Positions 5,268-50,740 of a stretch of DNA of 50,740 bases are shown piece after piece. The DNA comes from a virus (Duplodnaviria; Caudoviricetes). Position 1 is the first letter of the stretch; the number at the start of each line of letters is the position of its first letter. The stretch is from the IMG/VR virus record IMGVR_UViG_3300006754_000028, positions 1 through 50,740 of that record; one strand, written 5' to 3'. The position numbers and the translations under genes are program-made. The notes beneath the pieces are model-generated. The model saw only the letters and a list, made by a program, of their open reading frames with translations. It made no database searches and was not told the origin of the DNA.

Positions 5268-5297
5268 TTGACACCACCCCCTCTACCATGATAGGAT
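5268..5297 (+). promoter_or_regulatory. Sigma70-type promoter
   Basis: TTGACA (5268-5273), 18-nt spacer, extended TGa-TAGGAT (5292-5297). Confidence 0.6.
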
Positions 5298-43383: not shown

Positions 43384-43413
43384 TTGACACCACACACCTT
43401 TCCACTGTATAAT
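43384..43413 (+). promoter_or_regulatory. Perfect-consensus sigma70 promoter
   Basis: TTGACA 43384-43389, 18-nt spacer, TATAAT 43408-43413. Confidence 0.75.
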
Positions 43414-44462: not shown

Positions 44463-44610
44463 CTTTATCCTCCTTTGAAAGACGAGCGAAATGCTCATCC
44501 TTGATTCTCTTGACAACCTTCTCGTACTGATAGTAATGCGCCTCATACAGATACTGAAGCACCGCTGGATCACTGTACGCCCTCTCCATCAAATCATCCA
44601 GGTCAATCAC
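44449..44610 (-). CDS. Small hypothetical protein (53 aa)
   Basis: GTGA overlap with the MTase stop; MIDLDDLMERAYSD...KDGRG*. Confidence 0.5.
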   Translation of the reverse strand: MIDLDDLMERAYSDPAVLQYLYEAHYYQYEKVVKRIKDEHFARLSKEDKDGRG

Positions 44611-45242
44611 AGCAAACCCACCTCGTCACCCTCCATGTACCAGCCCACCCTCTCAGAGCGACTGAACATGTAGAGATACCCTCCCGCAGAACGCCTCTCG
44701 ACAAGATCATAGAACTCATCTGGCTTCTGGCTGTGCTTCCTCTTCGATGCCCTGACAATAGAACTGACTCCGTTGTCTCCAGTCTTAACCTGGCTGCCCC
44801 GTCCCCGTACACCAAACAGACACAGCTCATGCTGGCCCCTGAAGTAGTACCCAAGACCAAAACTAGGCTTAACCCAGCAAATATTGGTGATGTAACGGAA
44901 ACCAACCTCCCGCATCACCTTCAATCCGTCCTCAAGGTGGTTGTTAGTCACCCACAGGTACATATGGGCGTTCTCAGACACCTCATAGCCCTTCAGCCAC
45001 TCACGCATCACCAGTACACTTGCATCAGCACCCAACAGACTGTAATGCCTGTCAGCACCCCTCTGTATACGTCCACCACCACGCTCCAACCAAGGAGGAT
45101 CAGCAACAATCGTACTGACACTACGCAATTCGTCCCCTGAAACAAACTCAGGACACTCATCATGAGCTGATAACTCTGCAATTCGTCCACAATCCAACGA
45201 ACAATGCCAGCAATTGTCACGTTCAAAACGCTCAACAGACAT
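44607..45242 (-). CDS. MT-A70-family N6-adenine methyltransferase
   Basis: IVADPPW, HMYLWVTN, ICWVK..GLGYYFR..HE.CLFG, HSQKP and Y.YMFSR motifs; GGAGG SD before ATG 45242. Confidence 0.85.
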   Translation of the reverse strand: MSVERFERDNCWHCSLDCGRIAELSAHDECPEFVSGDELRSVSTIVADPPWLERGGGRIQRGADRHYSLLGADASVLVMREWLKGYEVSENAHMYLWVTNNHLEDGLKVMREVGFRYITNICWVKPSFGLGYYFRGQHELCLFGVRGRGSQVKTGDNGVSSIVRASKRKHSQKPDEFYDLVERRSAGGYLYMFSRSERVGWYMEGDEVGLL

Positions 45243-45927
45243 TCTAATCCTCCGATACAGCCGACACATAATGTAATTCGCTCAATGCGACGGCAGATGT
45301 TGAAATCCTCTGTTTTTCGTCGGGGTTAAACATCGAAGAACTTGTTCTTCTCTGTTAACACCCCTAGAAAAACCCTCTAATTAGGAATGTAACCACAAAT
45401 CAGCCCGAAATCCACTGCCATCTTCTAGTGACCGCTAGATTGCCCGTATGATGGGGGAGGAAAAAACCGTAAAAAAAGACAGCAAAGCAATACATCGAAG
45501 GGGAAAACGGCGCAAATGGAAGAAACAGGATACTCTGGAAAAGCTGAAAACCTCTCTAGGGGGGTAACACATATATGGTCATCCCCCACGGGGGGGGAGC
45601 ACCACCCAACCCCCATGCACATGCGATCATTTCTGTCGGCGCGCACAGCTCCGCTCGCCCAGTAGAGGAGTTTCAAATTCCTCTTAATGCCAAAAATCGA
45701 ACCTGGGACGGGGCCGTTGCTCGCAGCTACAGAACAGGTCTGGATCTCGGTTCTGATTCCGACGCTGGACATGCTCGCCTACCGTCAGATCTGCCACTGT
45801 CCCATGTTCAATTGCCCAACGTGCTCCACTGGTTCAACCGTGCAAAATAAAAAAAAACGATATTTCTTTCATCCCCGTGGTTAGGGGCTATTCTGGTACA
45901 ATGTCATGATTATCGTAGACAGCCTGT

Positions 45928-45955
45928 TTGTAAATGTCGAGAATCGAATTACAAT
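45928..45955 (+). promoter_or_regulatory. Putative early sigma70-type promoter
   Basis: TTGTAA, 16-nt spacer, TACAAT. Confidence 0.5.
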
Positions 45956-45960
45956 GATTT

Positions 45961-46590
45961 CACAAACCGAGGGCGGCAACCAAGCCGAACCGGAAAGGAG
46001 GTACATCACCATAGTTTCAAAGGGTCGTTCCCACAACGTCAAGGCAGATCCGCCTAGGATCCCTGGAGACACTTCCCGAGGGGAAGGCCGCATTAGTCGA
46101 GCGGAGTCCATGCACAAGACGAACCGCACTGCGAGGATCAAATGCTACCTGTATCATGGGGACATGAATGCTTGATCCATATCGAAGCCCCGACATAGGC
46201 TTGATCAGTGTTTTGGAGAGATCAGAACAGCGACATTAATACAGCCGTGCAATCGGGGAGGGTGTGACAACCTAGCCGTAGCCTACCTAGTAGGCGAGCA
46301 CAGAACAGGCTACCCGCTGGATCAACAATAGCGCCGGGTGAACGGATCCTTTAAACAGGAGTCGCCGGTGTACAAGTAGGGATAGGGAAAAACCCACCGT
46401 GCAACCTGGTGTTCGCCGGGTGGTGAGTGGAGACTATCCCCCAGATCTAGCGAAATTGTGAGATGTTCCGATTGATGGTAGCGATACCGAGATCCAAACA
46501 ACCGCGGCGAATCCTCCTCCTATATGGTGGGAGGAGCACATAAAAAGGTAGCCACTCTACTTTATCGGCTATCTGTGCTTCTCCTTTTTA
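45961..46590 (+). ncRNA. Candidate large structured RNA (~630 nt)
   Basis: Many hairpins, nested long-range helices, GNRA loops and G-U pairs; no credible ORF. Confidence 0.55.
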
Positions 46591-46619
46591 ACTATATTTC
46601 AACCAACAAAGGAGCAAAA

Positions 46620-46973
46620 ATGCATATAGTAGACCAAGCGTTACTCAAAGAGATCACCCGATTGGATGAAGAGAATTCCATTCTCCGATTAAGGATCAAG
46701 ACCATCGAACAAGAAGCCGGGGTTAAAAACCTCCGTCGCCTTGAAAAGAAGATCCAACAATTGAGGGCTGCAAACGTGAACATGTCTAGCGTAATAACTG
46801 CCCTCGAATCATTCCGGGACTATGTCTATGATCAACGTGACGATCATGCACTCCTGTCCTATGAGTGTTTCACTGAGCATCATGAAAAATGCGGGTACGA
46901 TTTTTGGCTAGAGAATCCTAACAGTGAATCGTTTCATGATGATCCTGATCATCTACCCGATCGGGCCTGGTAA
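46620..46973 (+). CDS. Hypothetical coiled-coil early protein
   Basis: AAGGAG SD before ATG 46620. Confidence 0.7.
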   Translation: MHIVDQALLKEITRLDEENSILRLRIKTIEQEAGVKNLRRLEKKIQQLRAANVNMSSVITALESFRDYVYDQRDDHALLSYECFTEHHEKCGYDFWLENPNSESFHDDPDHLPDRAW

Positions 46974-47057
46974 GTCTACCCGATCCGATCTTTACTTTGG
47001 GGATCATTCGATCCCCCTTTGATTCTATTTCACAACAAACCAACAACAGGAGCAAAC

Positions 47058-47300
47058 ATGAACTATAAGGAAACTGAAAGCCATCTTATTTACACGCCGC
47101 TGTGGTGGCATTTACAAGGGCTTCAACAGACCTCTAGCGGGTATGGTAGTAAACTTACTACCCCGTACAAGGTTCGACACGACGGTCGATTGTACCGGGT
47201 CTATTGTATCTGCTGGAGTAACTCCGGAAGCCTGTACATATTGCCGGGCGGCCGTCCCCTTTATCTCCAGTCCTGGAACACTTTCCGGCCGGCTGAATAA
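47058..47300 (+). CDS. Hypothetical early protein
   Basis: Leader repeat plus AGGAG; SGYGSKLTT...YRVY...SNSG. Confidence 0.75.
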   Translation: MNYKETESHLIYTPLWWHLQGLQQTSSGYGSKLTTPYKVRHDGRLYRVYCICWSNSGSLYILPGGRPLYLQSWNTFRPAE

Positions 47301-47380
47301 GCCCGATCCGATCTTTACTTTGGGGATCAAGTGATCCCCCTTTGATTCTATTTCACAACAATCCATAGGAGGATAACCCA

Positions 47381-47635
47381 ATGACAAAACCAACATCACC
47401 TACAACCCTGCGAGTCTACGTTGTCGTAGACTCGGAAGGCAACCAGATCAGGGCGCATATGAATCTTGACAGGGCGACGGCTCAAGCCGATGAGATAGGC
47501 GGCGTGGTGTGGTGCGTACTGTACCGCACTGAGGGATCATTCCTGATCCATCCCGATCGCCCCGATGACCTGGAAGATGTCCACCCGTCCCGTCCAACGG
47601 ATGGCGTGTTCGAAACCTGGTCACTTGTTCGCTGA
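47381..47635 (+). CDS. Hypothetical early protein
   Basis: Leader repeat plus GGAGGATA. Confidence 0.7.
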   Translation: MTKPTSPTTLRVYVVVDSEGNQIRAHMNLDRATAQADEIGGVVWCVLYRTEGSFLIHPDRPDDLEDVHPSRPTDGVFETWSLVR

Positions 47636-47723
47636 TCTACCTTTACATCTAGACCCCGGGATCAAGTGATCCCCCTTTGATTCTATTTCACAACAACAAA
47701 CCAATCCATAGGAGGATAACCCA

Positions 47724-47990
47724 ATGATTACTACCCTAACTATCGAAGCCTGCTCCGACTGCTACACCTATGCAAGCGGTGACCTTTCATCCTTTGACTA
47801 CTACTACGATAAAGAGGAATCAGAGAGGCTCATAGGCCACATAGAAGAGCGCACCACCGAACTGTGCAACGAGCACGGATACATGACACAGGGTGATAGC
47901 CTCGGCTTCTCTAACTCATCCTGCGAGTGCTGCAATTCACACCTGGCCGGCGACCGTCACGAATTGGTGTTCATCTCGGAGTCACAATGA
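47724..47990 (+). CDS. Putative Zn-binding early protein
   Basis: CSDC...FS..SCECC...LAGDRH. Confidence 0.7.
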   Translation: MITTLTIEACSDCYTYASGDLSSFDYYYDKEESERLIGHIEERTTELCNEHGYMTQGDSLGFSNSSCECCNSHLAGDRHELVFISESQ

Positions 47991-48133
47991 CTGAATTCTT
48001 TGTGCTCCTTGAATGCCTGGGCCTGGGGCTGCTAGCCCTGGTGCTCGTTCCCAACTGGAACAGTGATACAAAACTGGAGATGGTCTCTGTCCCTGTGGCA
48101 GGACTCGCCCTGCTGATCTGGCTCTACATCTAG
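47987..48133 (+). CDS. Small two-helix membrane protein (48 aa)
   Basis: ATGA coupling with GGAG; two hydrophobic segments. Confidence 0.6.
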   Translation: MTEFFVLLECLGLGLLALVLVPNWNSDTKLEMVSVPVAGLALLIWLYI

Positions 48134-48193
48134 ACCCCGGGATCCGTAGATCCCCTTTGATTCTATTTCACAACCAACCAAGGAGGATAACCA

Positions 48194-48355
48194 ATGAGTA
48201 TCAACACAATCATGCTTGAAGCATACAAAGACTACATCGAATATAATCTTGACCGAATTGCCAGAGATGGGTGGACACCGGTCTGCTTCGAGGAGTTTAA
48301 AGCCAGCGCGGAGTCAGAGCACGTCACCGACACAACAACAGGGGAGTCACAATGA
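48194..48355 (+). CDS. Small hypothetical early protein (53 aa)
   Basis: Leader repeat plus GGAGGATA; MSINTIMLEAY...GESQ*. Confidence 0.65.
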   Translation: MSINTIMLEAYKDYIEYNLDRIARDGWTPVCFEEFKASAESEHVTDTTTGESQ

Positions 48356-48448
48356 CCTGCTGATCTACCTTTACATCTAGCAACCTGGGATCCGAGGATC
48401 CCTTTTGATTCTATTTACAACAACAACAACCAAACCAGGAGGATAAAA

Positions 48449-50375: not shown

Positions 50376-50699
50376 ATGACAACCATAACAATGACATTCG
50401 AACTGAGCGCAGAGGATTTCAGATCTATATTTAGATACGTCGATATTTCTTACTGGGCAACGAGGCTGGAGAACGATGACCTAGTCGATGTCTATGCCCC
50501 GGACGAGGCGTTTGAGATCACCCGAGCCAAGATGGAGCAGGCGATCGGAGAGATGTTCGCGGCGGGGCAGCCTGGGAACAGTCTAATGTTCCAGGGCATA
50601 GACCAATTCGTTCGGCACGGATGCCCTGGCAGCATCGACAGCGACGTTGCCAACTGCATCTTACAGTGGTGCTGCTTCGGCAAGATCAAATACGGATAA
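50376..50699 (+). CDS. Hypothetical early protein
   Basis: Leader repeat plus GGAGGATA; ISYWA...ILQ...FG.IKYG. Confidence 0.75.
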   Translation: MTTITMTFELSAEDFRSIFRYVDISYWATRLENDDLVDVYAPDEAFEITRAKMEQAIGEMFAAGQPGNSLMFQGIDQFVRHGCPGSIDSDVANCILQWCCFGKIKYG

Positions 50700-50740
50700 C
50701 AACAACAACCAACAACCAATCCATAGGAGGATAACAATGA

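Follow-up and report, generated by a model that had tools for sequence, protein, structure and literature searches.

The non-coding region and its neighbouring genes

The DNA analysed in this study (the window) is the 50,740-bp virus record IMGVR_UViG_3300006754_000028 of IMG/VR, which is complete or near-complete (99%) and originates from an uncultured marine phage. The stretch is present in 24 marine metagenome runs, none of them of RNA among the runs listed, and the best match of its terminase, that of Roseobacter phage CRP-7, has 24.7% identity, which places the phage very distant from the cultured ones. At a strand switch near the right end of the window, a divergent intergenic region (45270–46619) separates two genes. 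On its left lies an MT-A70-family methyltransferase gene (44607–45269, − strand; Pfam PF05063, E = 2.1e-14), whose transcription leads away from the region, and on its right lies gene 1 (46620–46973, + strand), with which a rightward cluster of small genes begins. Gene 1 encodes a 117-amino-acid (aa) coiled-coil protein with weak coiled-coil Pfam hits only. The stretch 45928–46590 of this region had been taken, in a reading made from the sequence alone (the sequence-only reading), for a densely paired RNA candidate of ~630 nt without open reading frames (ORFs). The present analysis showed that the non-coding part is real but that its true extent is larger, namely the whole ~1.35 kb from 45270 to 46619, and that the stretch ends in a conserved module of two mutually exclusive hairpins ahead of gene 1.

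The coding potential of 45930–46620 was examined in all six frames, each of which contains 6–12 stop codons of mixed kinds. Since the kinds are mixed in every frame, reassigning any single stop codon opens no frame, and an alternative genetic code was thereby ruled out. Among the stretches of the window that have no ORF of at least 90 aa, the interval 45851–46523 ranks second in size; the largest one, 47400–48448, is a real small-gene block. A coding signature was also looked for in the 89-aa ORF at 45906–46175, which matched itself alone among 1,835,955,588 representative proteins and has no Shine–Dalgarno (SD) sequence before 45906. The eight ORFs located within 45425–46501 gave no Pfam family and a single marginal PHROG hit (45687–45884, E = 0.0048). 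Small SD-led ORFs were considered too, but none was credible and none in the body of the stretch (45960–46509) exceeded 18 codons. The region 45930–46620 is thus non-coding under any plausible code, as the sequence-only reading had claimed.

Promoter-like sites are confined to the 5′ end of the stretch, at 45894–45955. The extended −10-like element TGGTACAAT (45894–45902, + strand) is the sole TGNTAYAAT in the window, although one match against 1.47 expected by chance is not significant. The site TTGTAA-N16-TACAAT (45928–45955, + strand), from which the candidate RNA had been proposed to start, does sit at this position and has 9/12 matches to the promoter pattern, but such sites are no more frequent than expected by chance: four were found in the region against 3.0 ± 1.9 in shuffled sequences. 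Elsewhere in the window there are only two TTGACA-N15-19-TANNNT sites (5268–5297 and 43384–43413), which have TTGACACCAC in common and are both located on the + strand, facing regions whose genes lie on the − strand.

A conserved two-hairpin module before gene 1

The relatives of the gene 1 protein form four 90% clusters, and a metagenome scan for this family revealed at least two loci, L004 and L005. Of the gene 1 relatives P0002, P0008, P0011 and P0013, the first is encoded by 34 contigs (up to 13.3 kb) and the second by seven (up to 6.5 kb). Only 9 nt precede the ATG in L004, compared with 709 nt in L005; the upstream comparison therefore rests on one relative, L005, the only one with upstream DNA among the matches listed. 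Gene 1 of L005 and that of the window have 76% DNA identity. Meanwhile, positions 46506–46622 of the window and 587–712 of L005 align with 90% mean column identity over ~110–115 nt, and this conservation starts right at the first of the two hairpins. It should be noted that the module is thus more conserved than the adjacent gene.

In hairpin 1 (46514–46536, + strand; ΔG −14.9 kcal/mol), CUCCUCCUA pairs with UGGGAGGAG; within the module, this is the pairing of CCUCCUCCUAU with AUGGUGGGAGGAG. All nine pairs are formed in both the window and L005 (18/18 cells), with one change of U·G to U-A. The second hairpin is branched and of the terminator type (46529–46589, + strand), having a lower stem of 12 bp and an upper stem of 7 bp followed by U5 (46585–46589). 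Its stem (46529–46584) has a ΔG of −27.4 kcal/mol and a fold z score of −6.2 relative to shuffled sequences, and the L005 counterpart, with a U-run likewise, has −27.0 kcal/mol and −5.3. All 19 pairs of this hairpin are standard pairs in both sequences (38/38 cells) with three one-sided changes. The three substituted paired positions all stay paired: there are G·U/G-C swaps on the 3′ arm, and G46529A pairs in both folds. The remaining substitution and the 3-nt indel are located in loops.

The two hairpins are mutually exclusive because positions 46529–46536 are the 3′ arm of hairpin 1 and, at the same time, the 5′ arm of the terminator-type hairpin. As in intrinsic terminators, the transcribed strand thus has a stable GC-rich stem and, directly behind it, a U-run at 46529–46589, and an alternative, co-conserved hairpin that sequesters the terminator arm, as in attenuators, at 46514–46536. 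The module is a predicted intrinsic terminator with a competing antiterminator architecture; no conserved upstream sensor was seen in the comparison of the window with L005. The hairpin plus T-run with which the candidate RNA had been said to end is therefore present (with T5) and kept in L005. The antiterminator role suggested for the whole RNA is retained only in a local form, hairpin 1 being an antiterminator-like competitor for the terminator 5′ arm, but nothing ties the 550-nt body to antitermination. In L005 (610–632), the terminator 5′ arm also reads as a perfect SD, 5 nt, AUG, two codons and UAG (an MKR mini-ORF). This mini-ORF is not conserved, as the AUG of L005 is AUA in the window.

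The module continues into a CA-rich leader with the SD sequence AAAGGAG (46590–46619, + strand), which is of the type preceding the other small genes. The small genes to the right of the region are separated by a repeated unit composed of a GC-rich hairpin, TTTGATTCTATTT, a CA-rich leader and an SD sequence. Seven exact copies of this unit were found, as well as variants at the end of the 45928–46590 stretch and near 1497. At its 3′ end, the module has a T-rich box, a CA-rich leader and the SD, a unit that recurs after a hairpin ahead of seven other small genes. In five of these seven, an in-frame stop is no more than 48 nt away from the ATG, which makes the unit non-coding in these places. 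The variant near 1497 belongs to a segment (1375–1515) that repeats the "double hairpin + TTTAACT-TATTT" form of 46510–46600. It begins with a hydrophobic mini-ORF of 19 codons (1375–1434; SD GGAGG), behind which come two GC-rich hairpins in tandem and CTTTTTAACTCTATTT; the fold z score of 1371–1515 is −6.0.

The body of the stretch

The ~550 nt between the promoter-like sites and the module (45960–46509, + strand) are the lineage-specific body of the presumed leader RNA, with stops in all frames. For this part, the sequence-only reading had listed a run of local, nested and long-range helices. All 13 of its complementary segment pairs are present, and the nine helices with checked coordinates lie where they had been placed, but the number of such helices is at chance level. 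Perfect complementary 6-mers in 45960–46510 numbered 34 against 30.8 in dinucleotide shuffles, 7-mers 7 against 7.8 and 8-mers 1 against 1.9; 5-mers were slightly raised (154 against 129.7, with 17/300 shuffles as high). In the predicted ensemble, the long-range helices CAATCGG/CCGATTG and GCCGTG/CGCGGC had a pair probability of 0.00 and the CACTG/CAGTG helix one of at most 0.05, and the sub-domains that had been named gave fold z scores of −1.60, −1.68, −0.34 and −0.67.

Folding as a whole was better than in shuffled sequences on the + strand. The z score of 45960–46595 was −2.94, with none of 100 shuffles as good, and that of the − strand −0.26; for the body alone, the two values were −2.95 and +0.26. 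For the genome background, 40 tiles of the same length were folded on both strands: 9 of the 80 tile-strands reached −2.94 or lower, and the strand difference was as large in 3 of the 40 tiles. With the 6–8-mer complements at expectation and a fold excess that is ordinary for this genome, the description "densely paired" is not supported. In sliding windows of 150 nt, only 46450–46650, where the terminal hairpin lies, was strongly negative (−4.2 and −3.2), and no + strand window within the body fell below −1.6. Meanwhile, the preference for the + strand that had been read from the sequence was borne out by the z scores and also by the GNRA-capped hairpins, two of which occur on the + strand (46154–46167 and 46477–46488) and none on the − strand. 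Against a shuffle mean of 0.10 this gives P = 0.004 in a post hoc test, and the bias is one small point favouring real RNA structure. A larger RNA starting near 45640, which would use the long inverted repeats of the region, folded no better (z = −2.29) and was rejected, as was an antisense target inside the phage (best complementary match of 13 nt, E = 0.62).

No known RNA family was matched. A search of the whole window against Rfam 15 at gathering scores, which included ROOL, GOLLD, group I and II introns, RNase P and tmRNA, gave no match; at E values up to 10, the interval 45300–47200 gave just three noise hits, and at E values up to 1 there was no match in L004 or L005. ARAGORN found no tRNA or tmRNA genes. 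The preQ1-II riboswitch (RF01054) was considered since the phage has QueC. It was rejected, as its hit scored 20.3 bits where the gathering score is 47, with an alignment that drops most of two stems and is carried by A/U-rich single strands and the SD-AUG; in L005 there was no such hit at E values up to 10.

The body did not align with the corresponding part of L005 (global z = 1.4, 22/200 shuffles as good; local z = 1.9, 13/200), and single-sequence covariance models of 46127–46210 and 46318–46448 found nothing there (best E = 5.1, on the wrong strand). The L005 body is ORF-free as well, with stops in all frames and a longest ORF of 73 aa. Its fold z score is −3.85 on the + strand and −2.33 on the − strand, and it has one GNRA hairpin on the + strand (P = 0.063) and none on the − strand. 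The idea of a new class of non-coding RNA (ncRNA) is thus not supported, since the sequence that L005 carries at the position of the ~550-nt body is unrelated to it and matches neither of the two domain models. With a single comparator the evidence is weak, and a large discrete ncRNA as a conserved class is unsupported.

Searches beyond L005 covered several collections. DNA of the region had no match among the INPHARED phages and plasmids, and exact-pattern scans with pieces of the conserved module had none in IMG/VR or in GTDB genomes, where loci of the gene 1 family were not found either. The 15-nt cassette motif had 115 single-copy matches in IMG/VR, which were taken as chance because in no case was a second copy present. 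When the region was compared by blastn with 120 loci, L005 alone was returned; the L005 query also matched L004 over 42 nt. A search with the MT-A70 neighbour yielded two distant loci (L002 and L003) without similar DNA or layout, and the 399-aa and 239-aa neighbour proteins had no related loci. Contigs of four metagenome runs showed one difference within 45270–46620 against 13 in the flanks; as these data are contigs of depth below 6 and fragmentary cover, in which parts without cover are uninformative, no conclusion was drawn from them.

A candidate attenuated leader and its alternatives

Our preferred explanation, which we hold tentatively and at somewhat less than even confidence, is that the stretch is the untranslated leader of a rightward, presumably early, operon of small genes and ends in a conserved terminator of the attenuator type. 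According to this model, the host RNA polymerase would initiate at the sigma-70-like sites at ~45894–45955, transcribe the ~550 nt of lineage-specific non-coding sequence and then reach the conserved ~110-nt control module, 30 nt ahead of gene 1. There, the segment GGGAGGAG could pair either upstream with CCUCCUCC, forming hairpin 1 (46514–46536), or downstream with CUUCUCC. The downstream pairing would give the 12 + 7-bp hairpin with U5 (46529–46589), which has the shape of an intrinsic terminator and would release a leader RNA of ~630 nt. Folding of hairpin 1 would block the terminator and let transcription proceed into the operon, whose genes are themselves divided by seven smaller modules of a hairpin and a U-rich tract. 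A terminator directly before the first gene makes sense only with transcription from upstream, which points to the promoter-like sites at 45894–45955. The body itself may serve as a transcribed spacer or fold context only.

Several points weigh against such a leader. Both promoter-like matches are at chance level. The module shows no both-sided compensatory change, and with two sequences only, the support for its pairs amounts to consistency, not proof. A simple terminator scan, limited to loops of 3–8 nt, omitted 46529–46589 on account of its branching and its 13-nt loop. Both bodies beat shuffled sequences on the + strand (−2.95 in the window and −3.85 in L005), and a mere spacer of at least 550 nt would be unusual in a 50-kb phage. 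In addition, the conservation of the block could be partly protein-coding: both phages have an uninterrupted reading frame across it that continues into gene 1, the indels are of +3 and +6 nt, the ratio of nonsynonymous to synonymous differences (pN/pS) is 0.53 in the block and 0.46 in gene 1, and a 149-aa form of gene 1 starting at the in-frame upstream ATG 46524 was called by one source on six contigs.

These last points lead to an alternative for the 3′ block, compatible with the other readings of the body, in which gene 1 starts from ATG 46524 and its 149-aa product has a hydrophobic N-terminal segment before the coiled coil, the hairpins being incidental. The amino-acid identity of ~75% in the block and a weak DivIC-like coiled-coil hit (E = 0.048) are in line with it, but we regard it as unlikely. 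ATG 46524, in the loop of hairpin 1, lacks an SD sequence and follows CCUCCUCCUAU instead, whereas ATG 46620 carries AAAGGAG at a distance of 5 nt, as do all other cassette genes. The conservation reaches at least 14 nt upstream of 46524, and the same T-rich and CA-rich unit is non-coding ahead of other genes. L004, whose SD-ATG spacer differs by 1 nt, has a different N-terminus that starts at the SD-proximal ATG. Finally, synonymous sites differ less in the block than in gene 1 (pS 0.22 against 0.39, small numbers from 32 codons), which fits an extra constraint on the block at the nucleotide level.

The body could instead be part of a discrete, structured ncRNA of ~600 nt in the first position of the operon, a trans-acting RNA that might, for example, assist host takeover or serve as a decoy, with related phages having different, exchangeable RNA cassettes ahead of one shared terminator. 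That the unrelated bodies of the window and L005 are both ORF-free, fold better on the + strand and have GNRA hairpins (of at least 4 bp) on this strand only agrees with such an RNA, as does the strong predicted terminator closing the unit; moreover, phage genomes seldom retain 0.6–1.3 kb without function. However, the z score of the window is equalled or exceeded in 9/80 background tile-strands, the body has no 150-nt window of strong folding, helix counts are at chance, the domains proposed earlier have z scores of −0.3 to −1.7 and the GNRA test in the window was post hoc. There is also no Rfam match and no homologue in the collections searched, and two domains are unmatched in L005. We consider a trans-acting ncRNA unlikely.

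We give a lower probability to a hypervariable, fast-swapping cassette of structured RNA (e.g., a decoy or anti-defence RNA) that is not a leader and is bounded by the same conserved terminator. The fold scores and the GNRA hairpins of both bodies lend a rather small probability to the more general view of the body as variable structured RNA. If the bodies are selected RNAs, they would represent a variable RNA cassette of a kind matched by no Rfam family.

It is likewise rather improbable that the non-coding stretch works as DNA, that is, as a control or entry region with regulator sites, a replication origin or a genome end. The argument for this starts from the 1.35-kb divergent intergenic region at a strand switch, in which all three GCTCGCCYA sites of the 50.7-kb window are found (0.84 expected; three reached by 6/100 shuffles). 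Two of them (45653–45661 and 45773–45781, + strand) are in the upstream half of the region (45270–45893), in which no ORF matches a family and the sliding fold z scores are mostly −1.9 to +2.3 on both strands, with a single + strand window at −2.65. The third (46291–46299, − strand) lies within the hairpin GCCTAC/GTAGGC and, together with 45772–45782, makes up a perfect inverted repeat of 11 nt. The upstream half also contains an imperfect 30-nt palindrome (45312–45373; 73% complementary, 2-nt centre) just upstream of the MT-A70 start, which may be an operator. Long inverted repeats connect 45738–45782 with 46290–46499, and GATC is enriched near the methyltransferase gene (10 in 45930–46620, compared with a mean of 3.8 per 600-nt tile, sd 2.3). 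On the other side, the GC content of the region is 49–53%, so it is not AT-rich, and neither an iteron array nor tandem repeats occur in it. Of the inverted repeats, one perfect over 11 nt and one of 14 nt at 93%, an estimated ~0.2–0.3 each would be expected, so that they are close to chance level, and the strand asymmetry of folding indicates RNA. The L005 body has only one GATC, and the GATC cluster was therefore rejected as a shared feature. Along 45900–47700 there are 10–13 GATC per 600-nt tile, and gene 1 of L005 is also GATC-rich. The body could nevertheless hold DNA sites, such as the GCTCGCCYA boxes, the GATC enrichment and the palindrome.

The weakest explanation, which we judge very unlikely, is functionless filler made of decayed genes or earlier cassettes: the body is not conserved in L005, its helix content is at chance and its hairpin at 46047–46061 resembles the GGATC-type cassette hairpins, but the rest of the genome shows no similarity to it in translated searches (best E = 0.085) or, outside the module tail, at the nucleotide level, there is no family match for any fragment (a decayed paralogue was rejected on these grounds), both phages retain at least 590 nt here and the folding is strand-biased.

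If the leader with an attenuator-type terminator and a hairpin-spaced operon of small genes is real, it would be an ordinary regulatory layout, and its value would lie in the annotation of a very divergent lineage of uncultured marine phages and not in surprise. Worth attention in its own right is that two related phages keep different ORF-free bodies of at least 0.6 kb at the same place. A likeness in overall layout may be sought in the PR′-tR′ leader of lambda ("6S RNA"), which is ~0.2 kb long, heads the late operon and is read through only after Q antitermination. There, too, a promoter-proximal untranslated leader has a strong intrinsic terminator directly before the operon, whose expression needs read-through. 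The read-through of lambda is driven by a protein, whereas the leader proposed here is ~0.6 kb long, precedes an early-looking operon and has a competing RNA hairpin in its module; no antiterminator protein was identified for it.

The early leader of T7 contains three strong promoters, A1–A3, and extends to the RNase III site before gene 0.3. It resembles our region in having several hundred ORF-free nucleotides ahead of the early genes, a conserved hairpin before the first of them and hairpins between the small genes that follow. The hairpins of T7 are RNase III sites, however, while those of the marine phage are followed by U-rich tracts and its promoter-like sites are at the 5′ end only. 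With attenuators and riboswitch expression platforms the module has in common two exclusive hairpins that share one strand, both conserved and the downstream one followed by a U-run, but here there is no conserved upstream aptamer, leader peptide or protein site. The put RNA of HK022 is a two-hairpin element of ~70 nt that acts in cis on the polymerase and suppresses downstream terminators. It is likewise located between the promoter and the first terminator of an early operon; the difference is that the second hairpin of the present module is itself terminator-shaped. ROOL and GOLLD share the size class of several hundred nucleotides and the phage location, but the present body has no Rfam match, no conservation in L005 and no evidence of an ornate conserved fold.

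Two further observations concern the cassettes and the record ends. A box of ~21 nt (CTGATCT..CT.TACATCTAG) is located ahead of three cassette hairpins (47632–47652, 48113–48133 and 48360–48380). The C-terminal end (LI[YW]LYI-stop) of small ORFs is encoded by two of these boxes, and the third lies in a different frame; because of this difference, it looks like a repeat at the DNA or RNA level and not like a conserved peptide. The start of the record (1–30) lies in a start-less ORF, and direct joining of the ends yields an immediate stop. The end of the record (50698–50740) falls inside a cassette leader (AACAACC three times, then GGAGGATAACAATGA), and the assembly probably broke at the repeated module, so that a little sequence is missing.

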